In this document: piece by piece, positions 21,927 through 49,431 of the stretch | Position numbering within the stretch: position 1 is the stretch's first letter | Layout of the letters: each line of letters begins with the position of its first letter | Assembly (NCBI GenBank): GCA_965202805.1 | Contig: OZ241869.1 | Span: forward strand, 2,656,001 to 2,720,000 | Direction: 5' to 3' | From: Longimicrobiales bacterium | GTDB taxonomy: Bacteria > Gemmatimonadota > Gemmatimonadetes > Longimicrobiales > Gaopeijiaceae | Length of the DNA: 64,000 bases | The notes under the pieces: generated by a model | The model's input: the letters and a program-made list of their open reading frames with translations, nothing else | What the model was told of the DNA's origin: nothing | Databases searched by the model: none | Made by a program: the position numbers and the translations under genes

Positions 21927-22015
21927 TCCCGCATCGTATCGATGCCTGCTTCCCCAACTACCCGACCGCTATGCCTATCGCCCAAGAGCTTCCCTTTGAT
22001 TGAGACGTTTGGACA

Positions 22016-24358
22016 CTACTGCGGCCAGTGCTTCTGCCGGTACTCAAGCAGTGCCGATCCCGAGAGTTCCTCCGTCGCGTTGTTGAGTCGCGCGAAGAAG
22101 ATCTCCCGGGCCTTACCCTTTCGGGAGGCAAACGTCGGCTGGGTCCCACGACGTACGTCGATGCGCGCGATCGTCCGGCCTTCGATAGTGCAGTAGCCCA
22201 CGGGGAGATCGGTGGCGGCGACGCTTCCGAGTGCGTTCTTGACCGCCGTGGTTATCCAAAGCTCCCAACCATCGCAGTCCGCCCCTTTGACGTGCGGGTA
22301 GTCCGCCTCGATTCCCACGGGGTCACCTCGGTCATTGACACCGATCAGTAGCGTGCCGCCATCCGTGTTCATGAAGGCGGCAATCGTCTTGATGACTGCC
22401 CACGTGATTGCCTCGTCACGCCCGTTGCTGTGCAGGTTGAAGCGGGCTGTCGACTTGAACTCGACCACCGCCGATTCACCGTTCTCGATCAATGACCGGA
22501 CACCCGACTCGATGTCGATCTCTCGCTGAGCGAACGGGCTCTCGTCGCGCTCCGGCCGCCGATTCACCGGCTTGGACATCGCTCGTTCGATGTGGCCGAG
22601 TAGACGCTCGAACCGCTGGTTGAAATAGTGTCCGAAATCGTCACATCGAAGGGCCACCGGGTCAATGTCGTGGGAGCGGAGAAAGCCGTCGAGCACATGT
22701 GACTGGATGCCATCGCCGGATTCGATCCGTGAAAGGTAGACGCTGGGCGCGGAGCCGCCGATGCGTCGGTTGGTGCGTGCGTCGAGAGCCGTCTTGTTGA
22801 CGATGCAGTTCGCAATCCCCGAGTCGATACCGTGCTCATCCCCGCGCGTGTCGCACCAGTGCCGAGGAAAGACATGGTGGATATCGATCGCTTGCTCCAT
22901 ATAGGCGTGGACATCGATCGGCTGGCCGGTCTTGAAATCGCGAGCGCCCTGCTTCATCTGGAGTGCGTGCAGGCCCTTGTAGGCGGCACTGTTTCGTGTG
23001 CGTAACGTGAGTAGCCGCTCTGCTTGGAACTGTGCGGCTTGCACCGTGCGGGGCGGGGGAGAGTCGGGCAACGCCTCGGTCCACGCAACGCAATCCTCCA
23101 GGTCAAGCGCAAACCGTGTTTCCGTGCCGCCGCCGTACATTTCACCGAGGACACCGCACCAGAACCACCGCCCGAGCCGCTGAAGCGACTCGTAAGACTC
23201 CGCTCGGTCTTCCAGCCAGCCGAAGATGGCCGCCAAGGGCACCAACTGCGTTGTGTACGGGATATCGCGGTAGCGGAACATGCACTGGGTGTGCAAGAAC
23301 GAGACCGTGCGCAGCAGTCCTGTCTCGGCTCGATCCGCCCATTGCTCGTAGTCCGCGAGCGGTAGGCGCAAGACCTCACGGCGCTTGCAGGAGATCGCCG
23401 GAGCTTTGTCGTCCTCCGGATGTGCCCCGAGATGCGACTGCCGTCGGTTGTAGGTGGCGAGCAGCGTAACGATCTGCAGGAAGGCAGTGGCGTCGACCTT
23501 CTTCAGCAGTTCGAATTGGCTGAGTCGCTGCTGGCGGGCTTCCCAGTCCTTGCGCAGTTCGAAGTTGTCGGCGGCGTATGTCGCCGTCAGCAGTTCGAAG
23601 ACCGTCAGCGTAACGCCACCGGTGTTGACCTTCTCGAACACCTGGCACACGGCCTCCTTCGGTGTCGGCTTAGCCAGTTGAATCGTCGGCACATCGTATT
23701 GCTGGAACGGAAGGACGACTTCCTCGTGAAACCGCATCCACTTGGCGAGCCGCTCGGCCATGTCACCGCGACCTGAACCCAGATACGCCTGCTGCCAGAC
23801 CATCGTGTCGCCGGCATGGAAAACGATGTCCAGCGGAAACATCTGTGCCGCAATTTCGTGCTCGCGAGTGGTAAGGTCCAGATCGACTTTCCGACCGAAG
23901 TCGCTCCGAATGATGCGATCCGCCGGAATGCCGACGATGCCCTTCTCTTCCCGGTCCGCAGAGGGGTCGATGCAGGCTTCGATGCTTGCATAGTAGTGAC
24001 GGAGCAGCTTTTTCCCACGGCTTGAGCGCGTGCGAACCGGGTCTCGGGACTTCAGGGCCTGGAACAGCGACGTTAGCCGCTGCTGGCCGTCGAGCAGCAG
24101 CGTCTCGGGCTCCGGCCTCGGGTTCAGCTTGACCCCTTCGAGCAATCTCGCCTTGAAGTTCACGCCGGGATTGCCGGCGACAAGCGTCATGACCGCCCCG
24201 ATCGGATACGACAGCGAAATCGAGGCCAGCAGACTCCGGATGTGGTCGTCGTCCCACACCCATCCACGTTGGAAGTCCGGCAGTTGGAGCTCACCGCTAG
24301 TCGCTTGATCGAGCAGGTCTACGAGGGGCACATCGTCGCTGTTGAACTTCTTCTTCAT
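22016..24358 (-). CDS. GmrSD-like (DUF262 + HNH/DUF1524-like) protein fused to a C-terminal Schlafen/AlbA_2 domain
   Basis: QLPDFQRGWVW, LLDGQQRLTSL, FEKVNTGG, DIHHVFP..N..N; GES..VEFKST..IAAFMNTDGGTLLIGV.D. Confidence 0.9.
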   Translation of the reverse strand: MKKKFNSDDVPLVDLLDQATSGELQLPDFQRGWVWDDDHIRSLLASISLSYPIGAVMTLVAGNPGVNFKARLLEGVKLNPRPEPETLLLDGQQRLTSLFQALKSRDPVRTRSSRGKKLLRHYYASIEACIDPSADREEKGIVGIPADRIIRSDFGRKVDLDLTTREHEIAAQMFPLDIVFHAGDTMVWQQAYLGSGRGDMAERLAKWMRFHEEVVLPFQQYDVPTIQLAKPTPKEAVCQVFEKVNTGGVTLTVFELLTATYAADNFELRKDWEARQQRLSQFELLKKVDATAFLQIVTLLATYNRRQSHLGAHPEDDKAPAISCKRREVLRLPLADYEQWADRAETGLLRTVSFLHTQCMFRYRDIPYTTQLVPLAAIFGWLEDRAESYESLQRLGRWFWCGVLGEMYGGGTETRFALDLEDCVAWTEALPDSPPPRTVQAAQFQAERLLTLRTRNSAAYKGLHALQMKQGARDFKTGQPIDVHAYMEQAIDIHHVFPRHWCDTRGDEHGIDSGIANCIVNKTALDARTNRRIGGSAPSVYLSRIESGDGIQSHVLDGFLRSHDIDPVALRCDDFGHYFNQRFERLLGHIERAMSKPVNRRPERDESPFAQREIDIESGVRSLIENGESAVVEFKSTARFNLHSNGRDEAITWAVIKTIAAFMNTDGGTLLIGVNDRGDPVGIEADYPHVKGADCDGWELWITTAVKNALGSVAATDLPVGYCTIEGRTIARIDVRRGTQPTFASRKGKAREIFFARLNNATEELSGSALLEYRQKHWPQ

Positions 24359-24419
24359 CAGTTGCTCTCGTCACATGGGGAAAAGCTGCCGTCGCGTTCA
24401 CCAGAACTTATCTCCAATC

Positions 24420-24668
24420 TCACCCCACCGGCTCCCAAAGCTCAATCGCGTTCCCCTCGGGGTCGTGTATCCGCGCGAAGCGCCCGATGCCCTCCATCTC
24501 GCTTTCGTGGCTAACCTCGATGTCCGCGGACTTCAGTTGTGCGATCATCGCGTCCAGATCGGCCACGCGGAAGTTCAGCATGAACGTCTTGTCCGCCGCG
24601 AAGTAGTCCGTGTCGGCGGCGAAGGGTCCGAAGACCGTGACCCGCCGAGCCCCTGAACGCGTGGCACG
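24420..24668 (-). pseudogene. VOC/glyoxalase gene with frameshifting internal deletion
   Basis: Paralog of 37866-38228; MPRVQGLGG and VTVF..MLNFRV..DPEGNAIELWEP lie in different frames. Confidence 0.85.
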
Positions 24669-24794
24669 CTGCCTCCCCTGGGTGATGGACCGCACCATCT
24701 GCGCATCGGAAGTCTCGCGGAGAGAGGCCGTCCCTGCCAGACTTGTGGCGGAACTCGACTCTCGACGGCAACCACCACCAACCGGAACACCCCC

Positions 24795-25769
24795 ATGCCA
24801 AAGAACATCGTCGTGTGCTGTGACGGCACGGGCAACGAGTACGGCCCCAACAACACCAACGTCGTGAAGCTGTACGAGGCGATCGTTCGCGACGCGGACC
24901 AGGTCGCCTTCTACGATCCGGGCGTCGGCACCTTCAGCTTTCTCGGCAGGACGCTCGGACGCCGGGTGGGCCGCACGCTGGGGAAGGCGTTCGGTGCCGG
25001 GCTCCAGCAGAACATAGAGGATGCCTACCGGTTCCTCATGGACCGCTACGAGCCGGGGGACAGGCTGTACCTGTTCGGCTTCAGCCGCGGCGCGTTCACC
25101 GTGCGCGCGCTGGCCGGGATGCTGAACCTGTGCGGTCTGCTGCAGAAGGGCAGCCTCAACCTGGTGCCGTACGCGTCCAGGATCTACAACGACCGCGCGC
25201 GTCACGGGATGGCGCCCGGGTTCAAGCGGACCTATTGCCACGACTGCCGTCCGCACCTCATCGGCGTGTGGGACACGGTCGGCTCGATGGGCTGGTTCTG
25301 GGGCCGGAAGTTCTTCGACTCAACGCTGAACCACGATGTGAAGTACGGCTACCACGCGGTCTCCATCGACGAACAGCGCAAGAAGTTCCCGGCCAACATG
25401 TGGCGCGAGGACGCCAAGGCCGACCACCAGACGATCGAGCAGGTCTGGTTCGCCGGCGTCCACTCCGATGTCGGCGGCTGGTATCGCGATGCCGGCCTCT
25501 CCGACATCGCACTGGAATGGATGCTGGACAGGGCGCGAGCCCGGGGCTTGCGTCTGAGACCGCACTGGCGCCGCAGGCTCTCACCCGATCCCGCGGGTCG
25601 CCTCCACGTCTCGAGAACCGGCCTGTGGCGGCTGTGGAGGCCGGCGCCGCGAGCCATCCCCGAAGGTGCGCTCATCCACAGGAGCGTGCTGGCGCGCATG
25701 GAGGATCCCGCGCTGGGGTACGCGCCCGCCAATCTGCCCGGCGCGCATACGGTTGTCGGTGGTCGCTAG
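24795..25769 (+). CDS. DUF2235 alpha/beta-hydrolase (Tle1-like phospholipase)
   Basis: KNIVVCCDGT.N, YDPGVGT, GFSRGA, GVWDTV and WFAGVHSDVGG motifs. Confidence 0.93.
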   Translation: MPKNIVVCCDGTGNEYGPNNTNVVKLYEAIVRDADQVAFYDPGVGTFSFLGRTLGRRVGRTLGKAFGAGLQQNIEDAYRFLMDRYEPGDRLYLFGFSRGAFTVRALAGMLNLCGLLQKGSLNLVPYASRIYNDRARHGMAPGFKRTYCHDCRPHLIGVWDTVGSMGWFWGRKFFDSTLNHDVKYGYHAVSIDEQRKKFPANMWREDAKADHQTIEQVWFAGVHSDVGGWYRDAGLSDIALEWMLDRARARGLRLRPHWRRRLSPDPAGRLHVSRTGLWRLWRPAPRAIPEGALIHRSVLARMEDPALGYAPANLPGAHTVVGGR

Positions 25770-26935
25770 TCGGGCATCGCGCGCAACATGTATTGATCGA
25801 ACATGGGAACGGTGAACGCCGTTTCTCCGTGAGCAGGACTCCAGATCATCCCTTTCCGGATCAGGCCCGTGCGGATTGGTCCTGCCGAAGTAACCGCAAC
25901 CCCCAGCTCTGTCGCTACTGCCCCCGAGCGGTGTGGACCTGGGCCGAGTTGCGCCATTGCCCTCAGATACTCCTGCTCCCTGGGCGTAAGGCGGTCGAAG
26001 CGAACGCGGAAGAAGCTCGCGTCCAGAGCGGCAATCACCCTTTCCCTGGCCGACTCGACATCATCGAGAGTCACCGGTGATTCGGAAGCGATGTTCCAGC
26101 AATGCGCTCCCCACTCCTGAAGAAAATACGGATAGCCTTCGGTCTGATGACCGATCTGTGACAGCGCGTCATCTTCGATTTCGGCTCCCGCCTCCTCGAT
26201 CGGCCCTCGAATGGCCTCTGCTATGGCATTCTCGTCGAGTGGACCAACCTCGGGGAAATCGAATAGACGTTCCGCGTAGCTCTTGGCCTCGCCAGCTACC
26301 GCTGCGAGCTGCGGTAGCCCGGCACCGAACATGATCAGGGGTAATCCCGTTTGGCTAATTCGGTGCAGCGCAACGATGAGTGCGCCCAAGTCTTCGTCTG
26401 ACAGGTATTGGACCTCATCCACAAGGAGGGCTGCCGGTTTGTCGGCGGCTTTGGCCGCTTCACCGACGGCGACCAGGAGATCCGTAAGGTCGGTCTCGAG
26501 ATCGCCGGAAGCGGCCAGGCCCGGCTCTGGCGTCACGCCTACCTCAAACTCTGGGTAGGAGACCTTGAATGCGCTGGCGAAATTCCGGAGAGCGCCAAGG
26601 GCTCGGTTGCCAAGGACGCGGGCCTTCTCGCGGCCGCCAAGTTGATAAAGGAGACGGCCGAGTTTGGGGACGATGAGAGCTGCCAGGGGACGCCTCTCCG
26701 GGGCCTCGATCAGGGCGGTCAGGTACCCCGCAACCTCCGCAAGGTCTCCTATGCGGACGAGAAGGACGGTCTTGCCGACGCCTCGAAGGCCGAGAAGCAT
26801 CATGCTCTTCGCGTGTCGGCCAGCTTGGATTCGTCGTAGCGCGATATCCGCCGACACAAGCAATTCGTTGCGACCGGCCAAGGCTGGAGGCCGAGATCCC
26901 GCTCCGGGTGCGAACGGGTTGGCAACCGGATCCAT
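25766..26935 (-). CDS. AAA/STAND-like ATP-binding protein with C-terminal winged helix, copy 1
   Basis: NPFAPGAG, Walker A GLRGVGKT, Walker B LLVDEVQ, GYPYFLQ. Confidence 0.9.
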   Translation of the reverse strand: MDPVANPFAPGAGSRPPALAGRNELLVSADIALRRIQAGRHAKSMMLLGLRGVGKTVLLVRIGDLAEVAGYLTALIEAPERRPLAALIVPKLGRLLYQLGGREKARVLGNRALGALRNFASAFKVSYPEFEVGVTPEPGLAASGDLETDLTDLLVAVGEAAKAADKPAALLVDEVQYLSDEDLGALIVALHRISQTGLPLIMFGAGLPQLAAVAGEAKSYAERLFDFPEVGPLDENAIAEAIRGPIEEAGAEIEDDALSQIGHQTEGYPYFLQEWGAHCWNIASESPVTLDDVESARERVIAALDASFFRVRFDRLTPREQEYLRAMAQLGPGPHRSGAVATELGVAVTSAGPIRTGLIRKGMIWSPAHGETAFTVPMFDQYMLRAMPD

Positions 26936-26950
26936 CGAACTTCCTTTGAG

Positions 26951-27014
26951 AGAGTTAGATCCAGTTAGATGCATCTAAGGCTAGATCCTGTCTAACTCCC
27001 ACTAACTCTGTCAA
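26951..27014 (-). promoter_or_regulatory. Phased TTAGAT/ATCTAA operator array with TTGACA upstream of ATPase copy 1
   Basis: AGAGTTAG(26951)..CTAACTCT(27009) imperfect palindrome with six boxes; TTGACA on - strand at 27014-27009. Confidence 0.65.
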
Positions 27015-27178
27015 GATGCTGGTTCTTGTTGAGTGGCCCATAGGTGGACGTCGCGTGTTCCTGGTAGGATGCGCCGGTTTCCAGAGGACTGGCATCAGCC
27101 CGAGCCCACGCGACCTAGATCGAGCCAGCTCCCGACGAATCCGAATTCTCTCCGCTCTGCCTCAAGGCTAACACCCTC

Positions 27179-27655
27179 ATGCCAAAGAACATCGTCGTGT
27201 GCTGTGACGGTACGGGTAACGAGTACGGCTCGAACAACACCAACCACGCGGTCTCCATCGACGAACGGCGCAAGAAGTTTCCGGCCAACATGTGGCGCGA
27301 GGACGTCAAGGCCGATCACCAGACGATCGAGCAGGTCTGGTTCGTCGGCGTCCACTCCGATGTCGGCGGCTGGTATCGCGATGCCGACCTCTCCGACATC
27401 GCACTGGACTGGATGCTGGACAGGGCGCGGGCCCGGGGCTTGCACCTGAGATCGCACTGGCGCCGCAGGCTCTCACCCGATCCCGCGGATCGCCTCCACG
27501 CCTCGAGAACCGGCTTTTGGAGGCTGTGGAGGCCGGCGCCGCGACCCATCCCCGAAGGTGCGCTCATCCACGGGAGCGTGCTGGCGCGCATGGACGATCC
27601 GGCGCTGGGGTACGCGCCCGCCAACCTGCCCGGCGCGCATACGGTTGTGGAATAG
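27179..27655 (+). pseudogene. DUF2235 paralog with in-frame internal deletion (lacks GFSRG nucleophile)
   Basis: NNTN joined directly to HAVSIDE, compared with the 24795 copy. Confidence 0.9.
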
Positions 27656-27777
27656 GAGCTCACGACGGGCGGGATTGCGGCATCGTCCGGCAGGGTGAAG
27701 ATGGACCGGTGTCCGTCATGGCGGAGCAACTCCATGCAACCGAGAAGGAGTTCGCCGCGAAGTAAGGACGCCAGCGC

Positions 27778-27805
27778 CCACAAACCCTGACGTAACGTAA
27801 GGCTT
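27778..27805. repeat. 28-bp direct repeat, copy 1
   Basis: CCACAAACCCTGACGTAACGTAAGGCTT, identical at 31111-31138. Confidence 0.9.
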
Positions 27806-27940
27806 GCGCTTGACCGCTCGCCAATCAAGCGCGTCGCCAAGCGGTTACCTTTCTCGCATTCCTATATGTCCTTATCCTTGCGGGCCGCGTGGCCGTTCGG
27901 GCCTTCCTGACCCCTCATCTATCCGGAAGATACGCCAGAG

Positions 27941-28657
27941 GTGACCCAATCGTCCTTCCCCGTTCAACTGGAGCGTCCGTCCTACCCGGCGGCCGAGGCC
28001 GGCCGTCTGGTTGGGCTCACCGCGAGCAGGGTGCGGCGGTGGCTGGGCGCGTATGGCTACAGCTACGGTGACGCCGTGCGTCACCAACCCCCGGTGCTGC
28101 GTCGTGGCGCGACCGGTTCGTACGCGTCTTTCCTGGATCTCGTGGACCTGCTCTTCGTGAAGCAGTTTCTGGATCATGGCATTTCGCTGCAGAAGGTGCG
28201 CCGTGCACTTGACGAAGCTCACGACATTCTCGGGACGAACCACTTCGCAAGGCAGTCGTTTTTTGCCGACGGCGCGGACATCTACCTCGAAGTTCGAGAA
28301 AACGGAGAAGCGATCCTGGAACTGCTGTCAGATGGGCAGTGGGTGATCGCACCGGTCATTCGGCAGCTCGCCACCGAGATCGACTTCGCGTCCCCGGAGG
28401 GCTTGGCGCGCCGGTGGTTCCCCTTGGGGCGAAACAGACCTGTCGTGCTGGACCCTTTCGTGTCGTTCGGCGCGCCCACGGTCGTCGGGCACGGCGTGAA
28501 GACCGCCAACGTTCACGATCTCTTCGTCGCCGAGAACGAGAAGCTGGCGGCGGTTCGCGCCTGGTGGGACCTTGCCGAGGGTGAAGTGGAGGCGGCGGTA
28601 GAGTTCGAACGCCGCCATCAAGATTACACTCCATACCTTCCGGCTGGAGCCGCATAG
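27941..28657 (+). CDS. HTH + DUF433 antitoxin (VapB45-like), no adjacent PIN toxin
   Basis: Y...EA.RLVGL....VRRW, SFLDLV, VVLDP.VSFGAP.V. Confidence 0.85.
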   Translation: MTQSSFPVQLERPSYPAAEAGRLVGLTASRVRRWLGAYGYSYGDAVRHQPPVLRRGATGSYASFLDLVDLLFVKQFLDHGISLQKVRRALDEAHDILGTNHFARQSFFADGADIYLEVRENGEAILELLSDGQWVIAPVIRQLATEIDFASPEGLARRWFPLGRNRPVVLDPFVSFGAPTVVGHGVKTANVHDLFVAENEKLAAVRAWWDLAEGEVEAAVEFERRHQDYTPYLPAGAA

Positions 28658-29814
28658 GGCAAGGGCCGCGTTATCCGCCCCGGATGACGGGCCCGGTAGT
28701 GCGAGGGGTGGACGAGAACGTAGGCCTTTCCGGTGAGGTGGTCGATGGCATTCATGATCGGCCCGAAAGAGTGGTGCGCGAAGCGGGAGCTTTGCAGAAT
28801 CACGATATCTGGACCGAGGATTCGGATTTCGTCCAGGATTAGCTTGACCTCCTTCGTCCGGTCCAGGAACTTCTGGGTGCTCTTTTGCTGCAAAGTGTTT
28901 TCCGCTCCGTGCCATGCCCATTTGTAGATGTTGGAGAAGGCCAGGTAGGAGAGCGGGTTTTCCGAGGGTAGGCCCTCGCCTTTCCGTAACAAGGCTTGGC
29001 AGCTGTCCTTGGAATCCTGGAGCCTCTCCCAGCCCCACTCCGGAGGGCATCCGTAGCGTAGCATGGTGACGTAGGTTCCGGCGATGTGAGGGTTGAAACC
29101 TGTCTGAACCTTCTCTTGGGGCTCCAGCCCTGCCTGCCATTCGTCGGTCGTCCAGATCCCTTCGGGATTCATGTCGTACCCGACGTTCAGACCGAAGACG
29201 AGGACACGGTTTACCTCCGGGTCTGAGCCGTACTTCGTTCCGACATGGGGGTAACAAGCGATCTTCCACTCCTCCCGTCCCTTCAGCAAGCCGGTCGCGG
29301 GATCTACCCCCATGTCCTCGAAGAACTCTGCGTAGCGCTCTTCCAGTTGGTCTACCAGTTCTTCGACCAGATCGCTGCTTCTACCGTCGGCCCTTCTCGG
29401 CCCAAGCCGTTTCGGAGGCAAGCCCCCTACGTTGACTGCCTCTCCGGCTGTCGTCCGGCCAGGAGCGTCTTTCGCACCCTCGCCAAATCCGATCACTGTG
29501 AAGGAGGCACCGGGATACCCCATCTGCTGGATCACCTCCCGGCACGACGCCTGAAGGTTGTCGCGCGTGACCCAACGAACGTTCGCCCACAGATCCGGGT
29601 CAAGCCGCAGAAAATCTCGGTAACTCGGCTTCAAGAAAAAGCGCTTTCCACCGCGCCAGATCAGCCACGGGAACCGGTCGGACGCGGCACACTTGCGCAA
29701 CGCATCCGGGTTCATGCGGTTTAGCTCCGGGAGCAGGTGTCTGAGCACATCGCGTAGCTTGGCCCGGGTGTGGCGTTCACCGAACAGGAGGTATTCGCAG
29801 GAGGTGACGGGCAT
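28624..29814 (-). CDS. Hypothetical protein with C-terminal uracil-DNA-glycosylase-like domain
   Basis: PHVG.KY..RVLVFGLN, AFSNIYK, EI.IL.PDIVIL and HPS motifs. Confidence 0.6.
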   Translation of the reverse strand: MPVTSCEYLLFGERHTRAKLRDVLRHLLPELNRMNPDALRKCAASDRFPWLIWRGGKRFFLKPSYRDFLRLDPDLWANVRWVTRDNLQASCREVIQQMGYPGASFTVIGFGEGAKDAPGRTTAGEAVNVGGLPPKRLGPRRADGRSSDLVEELVDQLEERYAEFFEDMGVDPATGLLKGREEWKIACYPHVGTKYGSDPEVNRVLVFGLNVGYDMNPEGIWTTDEWQAGLEPQEKVQTGFNPHIAGTYVTMLRYGCPPEWGWERLQDSKDSCQALLRKGEGLPSENPLSYLAFSNIYKWAWHGAENTLQQKSTQKFLDRTKEVKLILDEIRILGPDIVILQSSRFAHHSFGPIMNAIDHLTGKAYVLVHPSHYRARHPGRITRPLPYAAPAGRYGV

Positions 29815-29908
29815 CAGTCTGGCCAGTTGGGGTCAAGCGGGCGTCCCGGCACCGGCGGAAGCCTTGCCCCACTCACCGAGGGGTTAGCCGGTGTCCATCG
29901 CGGCGCCA

Positions 29909-30898
29909 TCAGTCCGGCGGTGGGAAATGCGCCGTCAGGAAGCGCTCTATCTGCTCAAGTCGGTCGTCGAGCGCCTTGCCGGCCCGGTACCCGCCATCGT
30001 CGTACTTGCCAAGCGCGGCAGTAGCCTTGTCTTCGTCGATGTGCGGAAACCACTCAGCGAACTGTCCCGGACCTACCCAGATACTCAGGCCTCCGCCGCT
30101 CTCCCTCGCCCGCGGCCCCGCGTACATCAGGAATCGAGTTCGGTTTGCCGGCGGCGCAACTCTCACGGATGCCCGTTGCGGCTGCACTGGGAGGCCAGCC
30201 TGCTCGGACATCTTGACAAAGCGATCGAACTGCTCGCGCACGCCCACCTCCTCAGCGAAGGCACGGATCTTTTCAACGGTGTACCGGCGTTTTGGAGGTG
30301 CTGGCTCGGTCGGTTCGTCAACGACTTCACGAATCAGAAGCAGCGGCCCGTCCTGCAGCTTGAACACCTCGAAGCTGACGACACCGATCGGGACTCCGAA
30401 GCGTGCGAGAAACTCGTTCATGCGCTCCAGGCCTGAGTGGATTCCTGCACCAACGAGCAGCACGGCGATCTCGCGCTCCTCCCCCTCGCCAGCCAATTGC
30501 TGCTTCACTTTTTCCGACAGCGTTTCCTCGTTACCGTACCTGCCGAGGTTGGCCTTCAGCTTCCCGTAGAGTTTGTCCGCGTCGAGTCGGGCTAGCGACG
30601 AAGCGTAGTAGAGCGCCTGTCCGAGCGCGCCGGAATCGAGCCTCCCGGGCTTGATCTCGATCACCAGCCAGCGATCCCGTGAGTCGATCGCCAGAAGGTC
30701 CAGCTGTCCGTCGTCGATTCTCACCTGGCGACCGACCAGGGTGTATCCCTCCCCGATCAGCGTCACGTCGTTTACGATCCAGTTTTCGAAATGTCGCTCC
30801 AGTCCGATGTGGGAGCGCGCGATTTTCTGCGGTTGCGACCGTTGCGGGCCATCGTCGCCCCGCTGAGCATCCATGCTCCAAGCCGCCAAGTTCGTCAT
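29909..30898 (-). CDS. NucS/DUF91-like PD-(D/E)xK endonuclease
   Basis: LE..FE.WI....L......VGRQ....G.LDLLAID....LVIEIK. Confidence 0.85.
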   Translation of the reverse strand: MTNLAAWSMDAQRGDDGPQRSQPQKIARSHIGLERHFENWIVNDVTLIGEGYTLVGRQVRIDDGQLDLLAIDSRDRWLVIEIKPGRLDSGALGQALYYASSLARLDADKLYGKLKANLGRYGNEETLSEKVKQQLAGEGEEREIAVLLVGAGIHSGLERMNEFLARFGVPIGVVSFEVFKLQDGPLLLIREVVDEPTEPAPPKRRYTVEKIRAFAEEVGVREQFDRFVKMSEQAGLPVQPQRASVRVAPPANRTRFLMYAGPRARESGGGLSIWVGPGQFAEWFPHIDEDKATAALGKYDDGGYRAGKALDDRLEQIERFLTAHFPPPD

Positions 30899-31110
30899 CG
30901 TCTGCCTTCCTCAGCGTTAGTCCGCGCGTCAACTGGATTGGTAGACGGCAAGCGTAAGTGTCGGTCCGGCGAGAACACAACTCGGGGCGCGACCTCATGA
31001 ACTCGCCCATCGTACAGAATCAGGAAATCCCAGCCGACACCGAGTGGCTCTGGCACGAGAGGGCCATCGTCGAGGGGATCCTGGCTGGCGTTAACCGCTG
31101 TCATGCGCCT

Positions 31111-31138
31111 CCACAAACCCTGACGTAACGTAAGGCTT
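31111..31138. repeat. 28-bp direct repeat, copy 2
   Basis: Identical to 27778-27805. Confidence 0.9.
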
Positions 31139-31213
31139 TGCGCTCGAGCGCCCTTTGCGGTGGCTCTTGTGGCATTAGTTGACACAAAACGCGGGAAATA
31201 CCATCTTCACGCT

Positions 31214-31555
31214 ATGGCTACCCGGCAGACTCGAAACATCTCGCTACCACCCCAACTGGACGCCTTCGTCGAACGACTGGTCTCGCGTGGACGCTACCGA
31301 ACCGCTAGCGAAGTGGTTCGGCACGGCTTGCGGCTGCTGGAGGAAGCAGAGCACCGGAGGCTTCTTGAGAAGTGGATCTACGAGGGACTGAGCGACGAAG
31401 AGAGGAAGAGGATGTCACCTGCGCTCCTGGATCGCGCCCGGACACACTTCCGCAGACTCGCCGAAGCTACACTTCGCGAAGTTGCGGACGGACGTGTGTC
31501 CGACGGACAAGCTGCCATGCAGCGGCTGAGAGAACGCATTGAGGCCCAGACCTGA
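31214..31555 (+). CDS. ParD-like ribbon-helix-helix antitoxin
   Basis: TRNISLPP.L..FV..LV..GRY..ASEVVR.GLRLLEE. Confidence 0.88.
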   Translation: MATRQTRNISLPPQLDAFVERLVSRGRYRTASEVVRHGLRLLEEAEHRRLLEKWIYEGLSDEERKRMSPALLDRARTHFRRLAEATLREVADGRVSDGQAAMQRLRERIEAQT

Positions 31556-31648
31556 GTGCCGACAGGCTACAGGCTCAGCCAGACTGCGCTGGAGGAACTT
31601 GAGGAGATCCTCCTCCATGTATCGGAACGGTCCGGGACGGAGTTATGA
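31556..31648 (+). pseudogene. Truncated ParE/RelE toxin
   Basis: GTG directly after the antitoxin stop: MPTGYRLSQTALEELEEILLHVSERSG, then interrupted by the duplicated block. Confidence 0.7.
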
Positions 31649-31698
31649 CTCATGAGAATAATCGTTATGGCCCATGTCCCATAACTATGGCGCGAGGG

Positions 31699-31890
31699 TC
31701 ACAACTTTGGGTTGCCGTCCTCCGGCAGCCCGTACCACGTGCCTCTCTTCTTGCCGTGCATGACCAGTTCGCCTCGACGGGTCAGTCGAGCCAGGATCCG
31801 GCTCGCCTGCTTCGGATGAACCTTGCAGAGTTCAGCTGCGTCGCGACGGGCGATCCGGCGGTGCGCGGCCACCTACTGAAGCACGAGCTG
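31699..31890 (-). pseudogene. C-terminal winged-helix remnant of a regulator (second copy at about 33420-33580)
   Basis: QLVLQ*VAAHRRIARRDAAELC...G.KRGTWY with an internal stop; block 31627-31860 is repeated at 33347-33580. Confidence 0.65.
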
Positions 31891-31913
31891 GCGTGAAATG
31901 GGCACCTGCACCG

Positions 31914-33083
31914 CTAGTCGGGCATCGCGCGCAACATGTATTGATCAAACATGGGAACGGTGAACGCCGTTTCTCCGTGAGCGGGACTCCAGATCATCCC
32001 TTTCCGGATCAGGCCCGTGCGGATTGGTCCTGCCGAAGTAACCGCAACCCCTAGCTCTGCCGCTACTGCCCCTGAGCGGTGTGGACCTGGGCCGAGTTGC
32101 GCCATTGCTCTCAGATACTCCTGCTCCCTGGGCGTAAGGCGGTCGAAGCGAACGCGGAAGAAGCTCGCGTCCAGAGCGGCAATCACCCTTTCCCTGGCCG
32201 ACTCGACATCATCGAGAGTCACCGGTGATTCGGAAGCGATGTTCCAGCAATGCGCTCCCCACTCCTGAAGAAAATACGGATAGCCTTCGGTCTGATGACC
32301 GATCTGTGACAGCGCGTCATCTTCGATTTCGGCTCCCGCCTCCTCGACCGGCCCTCGAATGGCCTCTGCTATGGCATTCTCGTCGAGTGGACCAACCTCG
32401 GGGAAATCGAATAGACGTTCCGCGTAGCTCTTGGCCTCGCCAGCTACCGCTGCGAGCTGCGGTAGCCCAGCACCGAACATGATCAGCGGTAATCCCGTTT
32501 GGCTAATTCGGTGCAGCGCAACGATGAGTGCGCCCAAGTCTTCGTCTGACAGGTATTGGACCTCATCCACAAGGAGGGCTGCCGGTTTGTCGGCGGCTTT
32601 GGCCGCTTCACCGACGGCGACCAAGAGATCCGTAAGGTCGGTCTCGAGATCGCCGGAAGCGGCTAGACCCGGCTCTGGCGTCACGCCTACCTCAAACTCT
32701 GCGTAGGAGACCTTGAATGCGCTGGCGAAATTCCGGAGAGCGCCAAGGGCTCGGTTGCCAAGGACGCGGGCCTTCTCGCGGCCGCTAAGTTGATAAAGGA
32801 GACGGCCGAGTTTGGGGACGATGAGATCTGCCAAGGGACGCCTCTCCGGGGCCTCGATCAGGGCGGTCAGGTACCCAGCAACTTCCGCAAGGTCTCCGAT
32901 GCGGACGAGAAGGACGGTCTTGCCAACGCCTCGAAGGCCGAGAAGCATCATGCTCTTCGCGTGTCGGCCAGCTTGGATTCGTCGTAGCGCGATATCCGCC
33001 GACACAAGCAATTCGTTGCGACCGGCCAAGGCTGGAGGCCGAGACCCCGCTCCGGGTGCGAACGGGTTGGCAATCGGATCCAT
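31914..33083 (-). CDS. AAA/STAND-like ATP-binding protein, copy 2
   Basis: Six amino-acid differences seen versus copy 1; same upstream operator array. Confidence 0.9.
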   Translation of the reverse strand: MDPIANPFAPGAGSRPPALAGRNELLVSADIALRRIQAGRHAKSMMLLGLRGVGKTVLLVRIGDLAEVAGYLTALIEAPERRPLADLIVPKLGRLLYQLSGREKARVLGNRALGALRNFASAFKVSYAEFEVGVTPEPGLAASGDLETDLTDLLVAVGEAAKAADKPAALLVDEVQYLSDEDLGALIVALHRISQTGLPLIMFGAGLPQLAAVAGEAKSYAERLFDFPEVGPLDENAIAEAIRGPVEEAGAEIEDDALSQIGHQTEGYPYFLQEWGAHCWNIASESPVTLDDVESARERVIAALDASFFRVRFDRLTPREQEYLRAMAQLGPGPHRSGAVAAELGVAVTSAGPIRTGLIRKGMIWSPAHGETAFTVPMFDQYMLRAMPD

Positions 33084-33165
33084 CGAACTTCCTTTGAGAA
33101 AGTTAGATCCAGTTAGATGCATCTAAGGCTAGAAGCTGTCTAACTGCCACTAACTCTGTCAAGAT

Positions 33166-38228: not shown

Positions 38229-38486
38229 GCTGCGTCCTCTCGATGATGGGTTGCACGATCTGCGCTTCGGAGAGTGTCGTGGAGAGAGGGCGTCTGCGCC
38301 AGAGCGCGGGCCGCAACCCGGCGGATGCCCCTCTCACCGTCCGTCCGAACGTCATCCATGCCCTGCCAACCGGGGGCCGTGTGAACCTCCCGAGGGTTGA
38401 CGGTATCAGATCACATGACTAGCGTACACCGCCTGAATCGTCCTGGCCGGATCGGACACGGGAGCAGACAGATCATATGAGTGTAT

Positions 38487-38876
38487 ATGACCACGAGTTC
38501 GGCCAGCACGCCAAGGAGCGAGAATCAGCCCGACAAGCACGCCGAGGCGCGCCGACAGCTGATCGCCCTGATCCGGCAGCCACGGCGACGGGTGAGTGCA
38601 TGGTCTCTCGAGCGCCCCACCGACATCCGGTACGAGGAGGTTTGGAATCCCGAGTCCGGGATGTACCTGACCGAGAAGGGTATGTGGCATATGATCGAGC
38701 GCTTCCTCGGGGAGGGAGTCCCGCTCCGGCAGCAGACGCTGGATCAGCCTGCGGGCGAGAAGGCGTGGGTGTGCCTGTTTCGGCTCGCGGCAGACCAACC
38801 GCGCATCTACGTCAAACTTCAGATGATCGGGTCTCGTGTCCATCTTCGCAGCTTCCATTACTCCGATCCGAGGTGA
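38487..38876 (+). CDS. MqsR-like (RelE-fold) toxin
   Basis: C-terminal IYVKLQ....V.LRSFH pattern; directly upstream of the MqsA-like gene. Confidence 0.65.
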   Translation: MTTSSASTPRSENQPDKHAEARRQLIALIRQPRRRVSAWSLERPTDIRYEEVWNPESGMYLTEKGMWHMIERFLGEGVPLRQQTLDQPAGEKAWVCLFRLAADQPRIYVKLQMIGSRVHLRSFHYSDPR

Positions 38877-38882
38877 TCCGGA

Positions 38883-39452
38883 ATGGCTAAGATTGCTTCA
38901 CCCCCGACCGTCCTCCGTGAGATTGACGGACCTGAGATCTGCGGGTCGTGCGAAACCCCGGGCCTCAGGACGGAACTCGTCCGGGACCCATTCATTTACG
39001 GCGCTGGTGAAGACGCCGTTGAACTCGCCGTCGAGATCCCCGTCCATACCTGTTCGTACTGCGGGTCGTACACAGGCGAGGCGGCGGCGGACATCAGACA
39101 CGACGCGGTGTGCCGGCACCTCGGGCTCCTGACACCGAACGAGATTCGGGAGCTTCGCGGAGTATACGAGATGTCCCGTGCCGCCTTCGCGACGTTGACC
39201 GGCCTCGGCGAAGCAACCATCGCCCGCTGGGAAAGACGCGAGGTGATCCAGAACGTCGCAAACGACCGTTACCTGAGGCTGCTCCAGAATCCGGCCATCT
39301 TCCTCCAGCTCAAGGCGTTGGCGCATCCTGGAGCCTCGGTGGACGCCGTCCGCGACTCGGTGATTGCCGTGCCGCATGTCCTGCAACTCGATCGCGCGAA
39401 GGAGTATCGCGACCGTGGCGCGGCCTTTTCGCTGCACGAGCACGCGGCCTGA
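38883..39452 (+). CDS. MqsA-family antitoxin (Zn ribbon + XRE HTH) with C-terminal extension
   Basis: CGSC...CSYCG; GLLTPNEIRELR...SRAAFA.L.G.GEATIARWE...Q..AND..LRL. Confidence 0.88.
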   Translation: MAKIASPPTVLREIDGPEICGSCETPGLRTELVRDPFIYGAGEDAVELAVEIPVHTCSYCGSYTGEAAADIRHDAVCRHLGLLTPNEIRELRGVYEMSRAAFATLTGLGEATIARWERREVIQNVANDRYLRLLQNPAIFLQLKALAHPGASVDAVRDSVIAVPHVLQLDRAKEYRDRGAAFSLHEHAA

Positions 39453-41326
39453 TGTACGTCGTCACCTTCTACTCCTTCAAGGGCGGCGTCGGTCGCACGC
39501 TCGCGCTGCTCAACGTGGCCTACGAGTTGGCAGACTCCGGCCAGCGTGTACTGGTCGTCGACTTCGACCTGGAGGCACCTGCGATCCGCGCCGACCGGTG
39601 GAACAGGGACGCGCAAGATGGCGACGTGGCGCGAGTGGGCCAGTTGTCGGAAAACCGGGGCGTGGTAGAGTACGTCGGCCAGTACCTCCAGACGATGCGG
39701 GTCCCCGACGTCCGGGAGTTCATCGTCGACGCCACCACGCCCGAGAATTGTCAGGGACAAATCTCCGTGATGCCTGCCGGAGAGCTGAACGACAGCTATG
39801 GCCAGCGCCTGAACGCCATCGACTGGAACGAGCTCTACCAGCTCCGCGACGGCTATGTAATGTTCGAGGATACACGAGCTCAGTGGGATGCCGCCGGGTT
39901 CGACTACGTCCTGCTGGACTCCCGCACCGGGTTCACCGATGTGGGCGGGATCTGCACCCGCCACCTGCCCGACGCCGTCGTCTCGCTGTTCCGCCCGGAC
40001 GATCAGAGCCTGAACGGCACCCGACAGGTTGTCGAGGCCATCCGCAAGGAGGAGCAAACGCCCCGGAGGAGACAGGAGATCGAACAACATTTCGTCATGG
40101 CCGGGATACCGGATGCCGACGACGAGCATGGCCACCTGGCTGCGAGAAGGAGGCTGTTCAGGACAGAGCTCAGCATTCCCGGCCCTGAACGACTGTTGGA
40201 GATCAGGCACTACCCCAGCATGGACCTGCTGACCCAGCCGATCTACACGCAGACCCGCAGCGGGACCCGCCTGGCCCGTTCGTATCGAATCCTTGCGCGC
40301 AGGATTCGTGCCTGGAACATCGGCGACCGAAAGGGCATTCTGGACGGTCTTCGCGACCGCCGTCGCTTCGCAGACTCGCGTGCGTTGGACGACTTCCTGG
40401 CCCAGGTCAGGAGGCGGTACCACAACGACGCGGACGTTCTCATCGAACTCGCAGAAACATACGAATCCCGAGGATCGATCCTGAAGGCCGCCGAGCTGCT
40501 CGACAGGGCGGCCGAACTCCGCCCCGCGATGACCCACAAGCAGCTCCTGCATTTGGCGCGCGCACGGCACCGGACCGAGGACCGGCAAGGTGCCCTGCGG
40601 GCCCTGCGGTCGTTCTTCCAGACGGATGTCCATCACCCGTCTTCGGAGAACCTGTTCCTGCTCTTGATGGAAGCACTTGACTTGCTCGAAACGCTCGGGG
40701 AGGACGCCGCGGGACTCGCTGCTGAGGCGCCAATCATTGCGGAGCTCTCGCCTCGGACGCGCGTCCATGTGGCATCGCGGCTTAATCGGTCAGTGGGCGA
40801 GCGTCGCGTGGCCATTTCGATATTTGAGACACTTCTCGACGAAGACACTCTCTCAACCAGACAGAAGGCGAGCTGGGCGTGGCGCCTTGCCCTTGCCCGC
40901 ATGGCCGTGGGGGACTACGACCGCGCCGGGGCGGTTTTCCGGTCAGAACTGGACGATTCCGCGTCTCGTTCTGCCGTGCCCACCGCGTTCAATCTGGCCA
41001 TGGCCGAGTGGGCGATGGCCGGTAAGCCGAATGAAGACGCCTTCCGCGCCGTGGTGAAGCGCATGGACGAAGAAGACGACGGCGATTGGCAGCGAGACAA
41101 CGCCAGCGGACTCCAAGGCGTGGCCGTCGTACAGTGGTTCGGAAACCGCCGGGAGCAGGCCACAAGCAGCCTGGATGCGGCCGAGAAGGCCTTGGGCCGC
41201 ACCGCGATCAGCTGCTGGTCCTACACCCGCGTCCCACGCAAGACTTTCCTGGAGCACTGCGCCGAGATCCGCCGACTCTTCGCCGGCGAGGACATCCAAC
41301 CAGTCTTCATGCGAGGCGGTTGCTGA
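39452..41326 (+). CDS. KGGVGR-variant ParA/MinD-family ATPase with C-terminal TPR-like helical region
   Basis: VTFYSFKGGVGRT, VLVVDFDLEAP, DYVLLDSRTG; ATG overlaps the antitoxin stop (TGATG). Confidence 0.88.
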   Translation: MYVVTFYSFKGGVGRTLALLNVAYELADSGQRVLVVDFDLEAPAIRADRWNRDAQDGDVARVGQLSENRGVVEYVGQYLQTMRVPDVREFIVDATTPENCQGQISVMPAGELNDSYGQRLNAIDWNELYQLRDGYVMFEDTRAQWDAAGFDYVLLDSRTGFTDVGGICTRHLPDAVVSLFRPDDQSLNGTRQVVEAIRKEEQTPRRRQEIEQHFVMAGIPDADDEHGHLAARRRLFRTELSIPGPERLLEIRHYPSMDLLTQPIYTQTRSGTRLARSYRILARRIRAWNIGDRKGILDGLRDRRRFADSRALDDFLAQVRRRYHNDADVLIELAETYESRGSILKAAELLDRAAELRPAMTHKQLLHLARARHRTEDRQGALRALRSFFQTDVHHPSSENLFLLLMEALDLLETLGEDAAGLAAEAPIIAELSPRTRVHVASRLNRSVGERRVAISIFETLLDEDTLSTRQKASWAWRLALARMAVGDYDRAGAVFRSELDDSASRSAVPTAFNLAMAEWAMAGKPNEDAFRAVVKRMDEEDDGDWQRDNASGLQGVAVVQWFGNRREQATSSLDAAEKALGRTAISCWSYTRVPRKTFLEHCAEIRRLFAGEDIQPVFMRGGC

Positions 41327-41348
41327 AGGGCTTGAGAGAGGAAACGCG

Positions 41349-41633
41349 ATGAGCACGTTCGGAGAAGACCTGATCCGGTCGCTGAAGGAAGTTTTGGCTC
41401 ACAGTAAGGGCGAAGGCCCCGCCATCGTTCACGCCCCGGTGACCCCGCGCGAGGTCCGGGAACAGGCCAAGCTGACACAGTCTCAGATGGCAGCCCTGAT
41501 GGGTATGAGCCTGTCCGGCTACCGGAAATGGGAGCAGGGAACGCGCCGCGTCAGCGGCCCGGCCGCGACGCTTCTGCGCATCATCCAGCACGAACCCGCC
41601 GCGGTCAGGCGTGCGCTGCTGGCGTCGCCTTGA
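41349..41633 (+). CDS. HigA-like XRE HTH antitoxin/regulator, no adjacent HigB toxin
   Basis: F..DLI.SL.E..AH, LTQ.Q.A......WEQG.R..SGPA..LL. Confidence 0.85.
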   Translation: MSTFGEDLIRSLKEVLAHSKGEGPAIVHAPVTPREVREQAKLTQSQMAALMGMSLSGYRKWEQGTRRVSGPAATLLRIIQHEPAAVRRALLASP

Positions 41634-41679
41634 AGGACACGTCTTGCTGCCCGGTGACAAGCCCGAGCCAGGGAAGCCC

Positions 41680-42992: not shown

Positions 42993-44249
42993 TCACGGAG
43001 CGCCGAAGCCGAGCGCCCGCGCGAGGTCTTCGTGCTCGAACGCCGACTCCATGCGATCGATTTCCCTTCGACCCCCGCCGAGTCGCGCGGCGACCTCTCG
43101 CCACTCGGAGACCGCCTTCCCTGCCGCGCCCGCAATCCGTCTGGCGTGTTTCGGGCCCAGGCCGTAATACTCCGCGGTGGCCAGCGCCTGGTCGAGCGAA
43201 GCGGTGCCATCGAATTCGTCGATGTATGTCGTAAGGACCCGGGGGCTCACGTCCGTCGGCACGGGATTCAGGTCGTAGGCCGGTGAGAGGCGCCAGCCCC
43301 TTCCGATCTCGTAGAGGAATCCGTGGTTCCGCAGATGATCGTCGGTGTTCGAGATGAGGACGCTGAAAACGACGCGTCTCCACAGCTCGGCGAGGTCGGT
43401 TCGTGCCGCCGCTCCGTGACTGCGCAGCGCCTCGGCCAGCTCGAGATACGAGCGCCGCTCGTTGTCGCGGGCATCCAGCATGCTCATCGTCGAGAGAAAC
43501 GGCACCCGATGGCTTCCCTCGCGGTCGAACCGCTGAAGAACCAGGATTCGCCTTCCGGCAACGGTCTCCAGTCGCCACGCGGGGACCCGGATCCCGGCGC
43601 GTTTCGCGAGCGCGAGCGCGACTCCTTCCCAGAGCACGATGTCGCGGTCGTCCTCGGTGCCTGGAAACTTCGCCAGCACCAACTCGCCGCCGTCGTCCCT
43701 GACCGCGGCCTTGGGCCGGGTGCCGCCGAGGGACGATCCGGGACCGACCAGCAGGCGAAGGTCGTCGTCCTTCTCGCGCCGGCGAAGAACCCGCCTCGAG
43801 GCCGCCACGAGCCGGCGCAGATCGACCAGCGGAGGAACGCGCATCGCGCCCGCTTCGGCGAGAAACGGCCCTTCCCGCTGCGGCGAGAATCTGAGCGCGC
43901 CCATCCGGATTTCGTCGTCCACGCGAAGAAGGAAATCGGATTCGAACAGAGTCCGGGGAGCTCGCCCTTCCAACCTCGCCCGCCTGACTTCGGCACGGCG
44001 GAGGAGCACCCGGCCCCAGCGGTCCGGCGCCGAATCGCCGAGGGACCCGAAGAGTCTGCCGCGCGTGTGGTACGGGCCCGGTCCAACCGTCAGCGCGGGC
44101 TCGAGGGCGAAGCGCTGGGGGTGGTCCATCCACGCCGCATCGTATTCGAACGATGCGCTCTCGCGGCCGCCGCGAACGCGAATCCACAGCCGGCCGGCTC
44201 GCATGGGCTCACCCCGCAGATCGACGTGAACCAGGACGGGGGTGTCCAT
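42993..44249 (-). CDS. hipA: HipA-family Ser/Thr kinase toxin
   Basis: GSSLGG.RPKA, NTDDHLRNHGF and LSPAYD motifs. Confidence 0.93.
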   Translation of the reverse strand: MDTPVLVHVDLRGEPMRAGRLWIRVRGGRESASFEYDAAWMDHPQRFALEPALTVGPGPYHTRGRLFGSLGDSAPDRWGRVLLRRAEVRRARLEGRAPRTLFESDFLLRVDDEIRMGALRFSPQREGPFLAEAGAMRVPPLVDLRRLVAASRRVLRRREKDDDLRLLVGPGSSLGGTRPKAAVRDDGGELVLAKFPGTEDDRDIVLWEGVALALAKRAGIRVPAWRLETVAGRRILVLQRFDREGSHRVPFLSTMSMLDARDNERRSYLELAEALRSHGAAARTDLAELWRRVVFSVLISNTDDHLRNHGFLYEIGRGWRLSPAYDLNPVPTDVSPRVLTTYIDEFDGTASLDQALATAEYYGLGPKHARRIAGAAGKAVSEWREVAARLGGGRREIDRMESAFEHEDLARALGFGAP

Positions 44250-44611
44250 CAGTCGTCGGCGCCCGCAAGACGCGTCTCGCCCCTCCGACGTTCGGCCGAG
44301 GGCACGCGCACGCGCTGAGGCAGGCGCTCCTCCAGCAGATCGAGCCCGATCCCGTCCCGGCTGCGGTCAGCCAGCTCCGAAATGCCGTCGTGCATCCCCA
44401 GGACGAACAGGACCGTGGCGTACATGCCCATGGAGACGCCCGCGTCACCCCGTTCGATCCTGTGCAGCGTCGTGCGGCTGATCAGCGCGCGCTCGGCCAT
44501 CGTCGATGCGCGGATGCGGCGGCGCAGCCGGGCGTCCCGGATGTCGCTCCCCAGCTTCCTGAGGATGCGCCGGACCGGAAGCGGCAGCGTGCCGCGGATG
44601 TAGGAAGGCAT
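44249..44611 (-). CDS. HipB-like XRE HTH antitoxin
   Basis: LG.DIR.ARLRR.....AERA.ISR.TL.RIE.GD; stop overlaps the hipA start. Confidence 0.88.
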   Translation of the reverse strand: MPSYIRGTLPLPVRRILRKLGSDIRDARLRRRIRASTMAERALISRTTLHRIERGDAGVSMGMYATVLFVLGMHDGISELADRSRDGIGLDLLEERLPQRVRVPSAERRRGETRLAGADD

Positions 44612-48803: not shown

Positions 48804-49037
48804 ATGGTCATTGTCAATGTCCACCAGGCCAAGACGCAGCTTTCACGGCTGCTGGCGCAAGTCGAGGCAGGCGAGGAAGTCGTGGTCGCCCGCCGGGGCA
48901 AACCCGTCGCGCGGCTGGTTGCCTTCGAGCCCCGCGGCGCTCGGTGTCCGGATGTCCTCAAGGGGAAGGTCACGATCCCCGACAGCTTCTTCGATCCGTT
49001 GCCGGAGGAGGAGCTGAAATCATGGGAAGGCGAGTAG
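48804..49037 (+). CDS. Phd/YefM-family antitoxin
   Basis: VNVHQAKTQLSRLL..VE.GEEVV.AR.GKPVARLV. Confidence 0.93.
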   Translation: MVIVNVHQAKTQLSRLLAQVEAGEEVVVARRGKPVARLVAFEPRGARCPDVLKGKVTIPDSFFDPLPEEELKSWEGE

Positions 49038-49044
49038 CGTCCCG

Positions 49045-49431
49045 ATGCGGGTGTTGCTGGATACCCATGCCTTCCTCTGGTGGATCGCCGACAGCGGACG
49101 CCTGTCCCTGGCGGCGCGCCAAGTGATTGCCGACGAAACGAACGACATCGTCGTCAGTGCTGCGTCCGCCTGGGAAATCACTACCAAGTACAGAATCGGC
49201 AAGCTCCCCGGCGCTGAGGCGGTGGCACTCGATGTTGCGGGCGCCATCTCAGCCCAGGGGTTCGAAAACCTTCCGATCAGCGTCGTCGACGCGGAACGCG
49301 CGGGGCGGCTGCCCGGGCCTCACCGTGACCCCTTCGACCGGATGCTTGCAGCGCAGGCTCAGGCGCGCGACCTGGCGGTCGTTTCTGCGGACACGGCATT
49401 GGACGCCTACGGGATCCGCAGGATCTGGTGA
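49045..49431 (+). CDS. vapC: VapC PIN-domain toxin
   Basis: LLDTH, S.AS.WEI..K and HRDPFDRML.AQA motifs. Confidence 0.94.
   Translation: MRVLLDTHAFLWWIADSGRLSLAARQVIADETNDIVVSAASAWEITTKYRIGKLPGAEAVALDVAGAISAQGFENLPISVVDAERAGRLPGPHRDPFDRMLAAQAQARDLAVVSADTALDAYGIRRIW

Follow-up and report, generated by a model that had tools for sequence, protein, structure and literature searches.

Toxin-antitoxin (TA) systems coupled to ParA ATPases, including MqsR-MqsA pairs joined to a ParA-TPR protein, have been described in silico as TA-ParA systems (Li, Burroughs, Aravind, bioRxiv 10.64898/2026.10.19.760177, 22 Oct 2026). In its passages on mechanism, this preprint proposes a ParA switch that reorganises the pair to release the toxin, and it sets the theme apart from toxin-antitoxin-chaperone (TAC) systems. 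The TAC systems MqsRAC, HigBAC and CmdTAC use aromatic residues of an antitoxin tail to bind the chaperone (bioRxiv 10.1101/2024.02.24.581848, PMC5105189, PMC8165232), and the AA/VA ends of CmdA and M. tuberculosis HigA1, though not that of E. coli HigA, act as degrons for ClpXP, according to the tail-related parts of these papers. Here, we analysed a 64,000-nucleotide stretch of a Longimicrobiales genome (assembly GCA_965202805.1, contig OZ241869.1, positions 2,656,001 to 2,720,000; hereafter the window) and found on its forward strand an operon that is a new member of TA-ParA subtype iii rather than a new system.

The operon comprises gene 1 (38487..38876; 129 amino acids), a divergent putative RNase toxin of MqsR (BECR) fold according to a structure model and alignment, gene 2 (38883..39452; 189 amino acids), an MqsA-type antitoxin with a CxxC...CxxC zinc ribbon, an Xre helix-turn-helix (HTH) domain and a tail, and gene 3 (39452..41326; 624 amino acids), a ParA ATPase of the KGGVGR type that continues into helical repeats. 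The original prediction, made from the DNA letters, had described three co-oriented open reading frames (ORFs) with a 6-nt gap between genes 1 and 2 and a TGATG overlap between genes 2 and 3; all of this is borne out, with the overlap at 39450-39454, and the tail sequence it quoted matches the translated gene 2 exactly. It knew of no description of this architecture, which is in print as subtype iii of the TA-ParA preprint.

Like subtype iii (ConB2) as portrayed in the preprint's main text, the locus has a toxin, an HTH antitoxin and a ParA-TPR fusion in fixed order with an Arg in Walker A, and the membership features found here are a BECR-fold toxin, an MqsA-type antitoxin and the operon order at 25/25 loci. 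The residues after sensor-1 differ, being PG there and PA in gene 3 (PG 25, PA 15 and PT 1 across the family, n = 41). With TAC systems, as the tail-related parts of the TAC papers present them, the locus shares the order of toxin, antitoxin and third gene, an aromatic antitoxin tail of ~45 amino acids, an AA/VA end in part of the family and, as a model prediction, a third protein to which the tail binds (ipSAE 0.74 vs 0.00). In contrast, the third gene encodes a SecB-like chaperone there and a 624-amino-acid ParA-TPR ATPase here, so the locus is not a TAC member, and tails reported as dissimilar there carry a family-wide motif here. The locus may work like a TAC system all the same. At 12 of 13 term places, the preprint's main text holds no 'degron', 'Clp' or antitoxin-tail passage and one unrelated 'tail', and its abstract and sections 10, 12 and 24-26 give neither an antitoxin binding site nor an operator. 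The tail motif, docking site and operator reported below may thus be new relative to that main text, and the preprint's figures and supplements may have a bearing on their novelty. Literature searches, with most subscription papers outside them, returned no experimental TA-ParA study and no account of the tail, and PMC11980606 leaves ParA unmentioned.

A profile search with gene 1 yielded 471 clusters (50% identity) at E up to 0.001; a word-based search had returned only 5 near-identical proteins, so that the profile was required for the wider family. All 25 loci found through gene 1 carry genes 2 and 3 directly downstream, across several phyla and plasmids (eight loci in 7 of 401 own-phylum genomes, nine in a set of 351 genomes, four in one of 401, one in one of 301, one in G405 and two on plasmids, from Rhizobium and Massilia), as expected from the linkage that the original prediction had supposed. 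Sixteen of them were not first found via gene 3; by coordinates, L160 equals L022 and L163 equals L021. A candidate in G373 (E 8.9e-4) was excluded, being unconfirmed by the gene-1 profile. Searching from gene 3 gave 23 genome loci, all with gene 2 directly upstream and 20 with gene 1; the remaining three lie at a contig end (L004) or have gene 1 absent (L010) or deleted (L020). Genes 2 and 3 are spaced by -22 to +37 nt at 83/83 loci. The losses all point in the same direction: none of the 25 gene-1 loci has toxin and antitoxin without gene 3, and three loci with a broken or missing toxin (L003, L009, L010) keep genes 2 and 3. In L012, genes 2 and 3 are both frameshifted, perhaps through assembly errors. 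Because the same order recurs at 25/25 gene-1 loci, it is not a product of chance, and the three genes almost certainly form one linked system.

The genome itself holds a second intact copy (C1:3240833-3243797), 46-52% identical to the first; its tail ends EA (L155, G000:C1:3240752-3243820). The nearest relatives come for the most part from Gemmatimonadota records, and a sponge metatranscriptome is among the public holders. RNA contigs of one sponge metatranscriptome span pieces of all three genes, although such contigs cannot show transcription. Two antitoxin copies are orphans that lack a toxin and an ATPase of their own; the tail is frameshifted in one (L156) and short in the other (L157).

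Among metagenomes, 80 of 572 loci were kept, 61 of them with gene 2 and 29 with a gene-1-family toxin, while the other 32 with gene 2 have different small genes upstream or too little sequence. A scan of 24 such upstream proteins found no convincing Pfam match. Several unrelated genes of 110-165 amino acids occupy the toxin slot of L043, L060, L073-L098, L104 and L110, many ending in a strand and His motif, and are probably further unnamed BECR toxin families. Of the 19 metagenome loci without gene 2, two offer too short a sequence for a judgement; among 13 upstream genes scanned, 6 encode TIR domains. This TIR-ParA arrangement (FxsC/FxsT-like) resembles the operon in placing the same KGGVGR ATPase clade directly behind an effector gene, and differs in having a TIR effector, no antitoxin and partly different insert residues at the predicted tail-holding site. 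At L099, L102, L105-L109, L112 and L113, the TIR gene upstream of the KGGVGR ATPase closes with a short, Pro-rich tail of P-x-L type; such tails may serve for docking, as may that of the antitoxin.

Putative toxin, antitoxin, ATPase and candidate operator

Gene 1 has no family match in Pfam, NCBIfam or PADLOC, and the Pfam MqsR profile (PF15723) matches 0/17 aligned homologs, its sole trace being 17% PF15723 in one Atlas cluster at 0.92. PDB sequence searches with gene-1 profiles also gave no significant match. The structure model (pLDDT 92.2), in contrast, supports the MqsR-like nature proposed at the outset, at the level of fold: E. coli MqsR (3hi2) aligns with Z 9.7, root-mean-square deviation 2.9 and 19% identity over 89 residues, and is the sole chain at Z >= 8 among 48161 compared (next 5.2), RelE-type toxins falling below it at Z 4 to 4.5. 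In Foldseek, 3hi2 comes fourth when ordered by E-value (0.079), but its probability is 0.98. Residues Y108, K110, F123 and H124 are invariant across 149 aligned gene-1 sequences. Toxicity of MqsR requires K56, Q68, Y81 and K96 (PMC2791442). The spacing of Y108 and H124 (16) is close to that of MqsR Y81 and K96 (15), a correspondence by spacing alone, and these residues may be equivalent. Together, the model suggests that gene 1 encodes an MqsR-fold protein, which would act as an mRNA RNase. The toxin is missing from the annotated gene tables of both plasmid records; with this and the lack of a library profile, TA-ParA operons of this type are easily overlooked.

Gene 2 scores 54.9 bits (E 7e-15) against TIGR03830, below the curated cut-off of 61.8, which its homolog in G403 clears (68 bits); E. 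coli MqsA (3gn5) is also picked up by the profile of the gene-2 family, over positions 18-139 (E 6.5e-5). The four zinc-ribbon cysteines are invariant in 41/41 antitoxins, and the Xre HTH lies C-terminal to the ribbon. Compared with E. coli MqsR-MqsA (3hi2, 3gn5; PMC2791442), the locus has the same MqsR fold, four-Cys zinc ribbon with Xre HTH and toxin-first order, and likely the same autorepression. It differs in a longer toxin (129 vs ~98 amino acids; 19% identity, no Pfam MqsR match), an extra antitoxin tail and an apparently obligatory third gene.

Gene 3 scores 154.3 bits against NF047398 (KGGVGR ATPase; curated cut-off 90). Its ParA/MinD-type domain (residues 1-290, 39452..40321, + strand) contains at residues 10-16 Walker A KGGVGRT, the motif originally read, followed by DFD and Walker B DSRTG; Arg replaces the Walker A Lys (R15) in 41/41 family members. 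In the model (pLDDT 90.7), this domain resembles BcsQ, Soj and MinD and leads into TPR-like helices. The claim of a long TPR-like region is upheld by the model, in which residues 293 to 580 are helical and whose best TPR structure match has E 6.6e-7; every Pfam TPR match falls under its cut-off. Within the domain, residues 70-147 (39659-39892, + strand) form the beta2-beta3 insert, with beta2 (32-37) ahead of it and the Walker B strand (152-158) behind. The domain is followed by variable repeats (residues 291-505) and a better conserved C-terminal cap (506-620), together the presumed sensor, at 40322..41326 on the + strand. Mean conservation among 25 distant homologs reaches 0.82 in residues 1-45, 0.57 in 70-147 and 0.64 in 148-290, against 0.40 and 0.33 in the repeats and 0.46 in the C-terminal 115 residues. 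The repeats are thus the least conserved long part, and the cap holds 15 near-invariant columns. The PADLOC match PDC-M28B spans the ParA domain only, and genes 1 and 2 have no PADLOC match.

Upstream of gene 1, the family shares a palindrome, ATCATATGAT, mostly in two copies. At least one site with up to 1 mismatch occurs in 35/46 upstream regions, 0/42 farther-upstream controls and 0.7% of shuffles, the consensus having been derived from the same upstream regions on which it was scored. The 4.0-Mb genome holds 11 such sites, and the sole perfect one precedes the second operon copy. In the window, ATCACATGAC (38410..38419; 2 mismatches) lies inside the spacer of a putative sigma-70 promoter (38397..38425, + strand; TTGACG, 17 nt, weak -10 TAGCGT) that was inferred from the sequence and left uncalled by a consensus scan, and ATCATATGAG (38472..38481; 1 mismatch) stands immediately before gene 1. 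A promoter and terminator scan gave nothing above chance, and no terminal repeats bounding the operon were found. The distribution of these palindromes suggests that the antitoxin autorepresses the operon there.

The antitoxin tail and its predicted docking site

The original prediction gave the antitoxin an extension of about 40 residues after the HTH. The extension is present and is longer, at ~45-53 residues: gene-2 residues 20-136 align to positions 1-118 of the 127-position TIGR03830 profile, and the tail (residues 137-189; 39291..39449, + strand) consists of a variable linker, a predicted docking segment and a C-terminal Ala-Ala. We compared tails in 66 antitoxins left from 94 at <60% identity, 41 of which are paired with a gene-1-family toxin. 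Counted from 20 residues after the RW motif, the tail has a median length of 55 (range 32-78; anchor found in 61/66). Position 182 is F in 35/41 and W in 6/41, whereas the linker is variable. The pattern [FW]xL falls within the last 16 residues of 34/41 antitoxins, and 17/41 end in [AVL]A (13/41 in AA), against a background of 5.1%, 2.7% and 1.3%, respectively, in 1354 long ORFs of the same genome. Other operon proteins rarely end in AA (0/150 gene-1 and 2/59 gene-3 proteins), and the antitoxin keeps this end even at loci that lack the overlap between its gene and gene 3 (L009, L022, L023).

Full-length TIGR03830 matches in 151 genomes number eight: two of this system, one orphan of it, one TAC-looking and four other MqsA pairs (L123, L124, L127, L130), whose antitoxins carry extensions although no ParA gene lies closer than 1.5 kb. 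Since MqsA pairs without ParA also have AA-ending extensions, the tail alone is not diagnostic of a third partner. Three of them (L123, L124, L127) pair a DUF4258-type toxin with an MqsA-like antitoxin bearing a similar extension of 35-55 residues and lack a third gene; they are possible protease-controlled pairs. The locus L126:781-2338 has a toxin, an MqsA with a tail ending AA and a 146-residue third gene without Pfam match, which looks SecB-like by eye and would mark a likely divergent TAC locus. At L068:160-864, directly upstream of a ParA gene, a non-MqsA body carries a tail nearly identical to the MqsA tails of L035 and L071, an arrangement that would suit either a portable tail or an antitoxin whose front has been replaced.

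We then predicted the complex of gene 3 (1-624) with the tail (135-189), using a 41-row alignment for each and one ParA monomer without nucleotide. The three runs gave ipSAE 0.72, 0.74 and 0.74, with at least 89% of contacts in common and partner pLDDT of at least 68, and three controls gave 0.00; the ipSAE mark is reached by 116/157 solved and 2/215 mismatched pairs, a calibration only roughly valid with alignments of our own. The predicted interface joins ParA residues 78-87, 125-147, 161-171 and 192-205 to tail residues 158-186 (39354-39440, + strand), which contain F182-x-L184, and the beta2-beta3 insert makes up the bulk of the site. The idea that the ATPase-TPR protein guards the antitoxin tail is supported as to a predicted contact and amended as to place: the model puts the tail on the ParA domain rather than on the TPR region. 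Neither a repeat residue nor the last three tail residues are in the interface list, in which absence means uncertain. The core of the site (P85, W125, Y129, G134, E139, D163, G166, I167) is largely retained in distant relatives and only partly in TIR-linked ones. In the preprint's passages on ParA partners, the beta2-beta3 insert and helix 4 of the other monomer form the ParB/MinE partner surface (bioRxiv 10.64898/2026.10.19.760177). Taken together, the predicted complex makes it likely that the antitoxin tail binds the ParA domain.

Candidate mechanism and rival readings

These results are compatible with a three-component type II TA immune switch of TA-ParA type that resembles TAC with a ParA ATPase in the place of SecB, a reading to which we give an even chance. 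Its case rests on the linkage, the family tail motif and the complex model. By analogy with E. coli MqsA, the zinc-ribbon domain of gene 2 would hold the gene-1 toxin, and gene 2 would, given the conserved operator, repress the operon at the ATCATATGAT palindromes. The tail is predicted to dock on the beta2-beta3 insert of ParA with its last three residues outside the listed interface, and docking could shield a labile tail whose end would often be a degron of the ClpX type. A signal from an invader, read by the helical repeats, might alter the nucleotide or dimer state of the ATPase or displace the tail; the antitoxin would then be degraded, and the RNase would halt translation, leading to abortive infection or dormancy. 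Whether gene 3 is needed for neutralisation is, in our estimate, evenly balanced, and an anti-phage role of the operon appears fairly probable. Defence-type neighbours, classed from Pfam names, stand at 17/31 homologous loci and include BREX, GmrSD, Thoeris TIR, SIR2, DarT and type I restriction-modification genes.

Several points weigh against the immune switch. The count of defence neighbours has no background and derives from 112 of 219 flanking ORFs scanned. Tails without the [AVL]A end make up 24/41, this end occurs in only 2/25 antitoxins without a gene-1-family toxin match, and the DUF4258-type pairs L123 and L124, with no ParA nearby, carry extensions ending AA. The tail patterns were picked after the sequences had been inspected, and related sequences are not independent. 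The complex is a model of a single nucleotide-free ParA monomer, and special conservation of the docking surface found no support (interface 0.61 vs 0.60 for the rest of the domain). Finally, the preprint, in its comparison of the two themes, judges TA-ParA systems distinct from TAC (bioRxiv 10.64898/2026.10.19.760177).

A different reading, which we consider less likely, is that the pair is stable alone, that ParA-TPR grips the tail only as a handle and strips off the antitoxin after sensing, without proteolysis, and that the arginine-rich tail, in the manner of a MinE or ParB peptide, stimulates the ATPase. Such activation would suit the position of the predicted tail site on the partner surface of ParA proteins, the lack of a degron-like end in many tails and the ParA switch reorganising the pair that the mechanism passages of the preprint posit. 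It sits poorly with the conservation pattern of the operon, in which toxin and antitoxin occur without gene 3 at 0/25 loci while the toxin can be lost with genes 2 and 3 kept, and with AA/VA tail ends far above background. Less probable still is a stress or addiction unit that maintains itself on mobile, shuffled DNA, the ATPase reporting cell state or stabilising the cassette. The variable slot among other TA modules, the two plasmid copies, the 14/31 loci without a defence-type neighbour and the failure of tblastn to find any phage record carrying gene 1 would fit this, whereas the BREX, GmrSD, Thoeris TIR, SIR2, DarT and restriction-modification neighbours, the coupling of the same ATPase clade to TIR genes and the weak conservation of the repeats, as expected of a sensor, argue against it. 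That an ordinary MqsRA-like pair merely lies beside an unrelated ParA gene is hardly credible: the slot is indeed shuffled between strains, but the reciprocal linkage across phyla (25/25) refutes it, and the tight spacing (83/83), the second intact copy in the genome and the predicted complex also speak against it.

Returning to the immune switch, we tentatively suggest that it might represent chaperone addiction rebuilt on a P-loop switch, which we regard as somewhat less than an even prospect. The MinE/ParB surface of a KGGVGR ParA would grip the degron-bearing tail of an upstream-encoded protein, so that the tail serves as a portable leash by which a single sensor ATPase controls toxin pairs of many unrelated kinds, and perhaps TIR effectors too. 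During infection, the ATPase cycle would then decide when ClpXP can reach the antitoxin. TA-ParA has so far been a computational prediction without mechanism, and the tail, its predicted docking site and the degron-like end give testable point mutants. They also tie the class to TAC, from which its describers separated it.

Genomic slot and neighbouring genes

The operon lies in a variable gene slot (38304..41661): genomes of the same genus have both flanks, which reach up to 38303 on the left and start at ~41662 on the right, but other cargo between them, namely DUF429, ParD, NYN, Tle1-like or permease genes. One public run has contigs that join across this slot. Behind the operon, a lone Xre HTH gene (41349-41633), NadS-like under the cut-off and without a toxin, forms an independent module; it is not part of the system because it follows other cargo in related genomes (G1458 and G1460, and as a piece in G324). 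At the left edge of the slot lies a 69-nt element (38235-38303), upstream of a glyoxalase gene, which recurs in the genome and the genus. Further occurrences lie near 24400-24740 and 34600, and glyoxalase fragments recur in the region.

Elsewhere in the window, a lower-GC island (14600-33100) contains a DNA methylase, an IS110 piece, a GmrSD-Schlafen fusion, a Tle1-like lipase, a NucS-like nuclease and ParD, and two near-identical genes for a 402-amino-acid AAA_16 ATPase lie 6 kb apart (25769-26974 and 31917-33122). Further TA genes are present at 5591-6178 (Panacea), 42996-44611 (HipA and HTH) and 48804-49431 (Phd-PIN). At three homologous loci (L052, L054, L055), the ParA gene is followed by a co-oriented gene for 370 amino acids without Pfam match and a HerA (DUF87) gene, which possibly form a linked defence pair.

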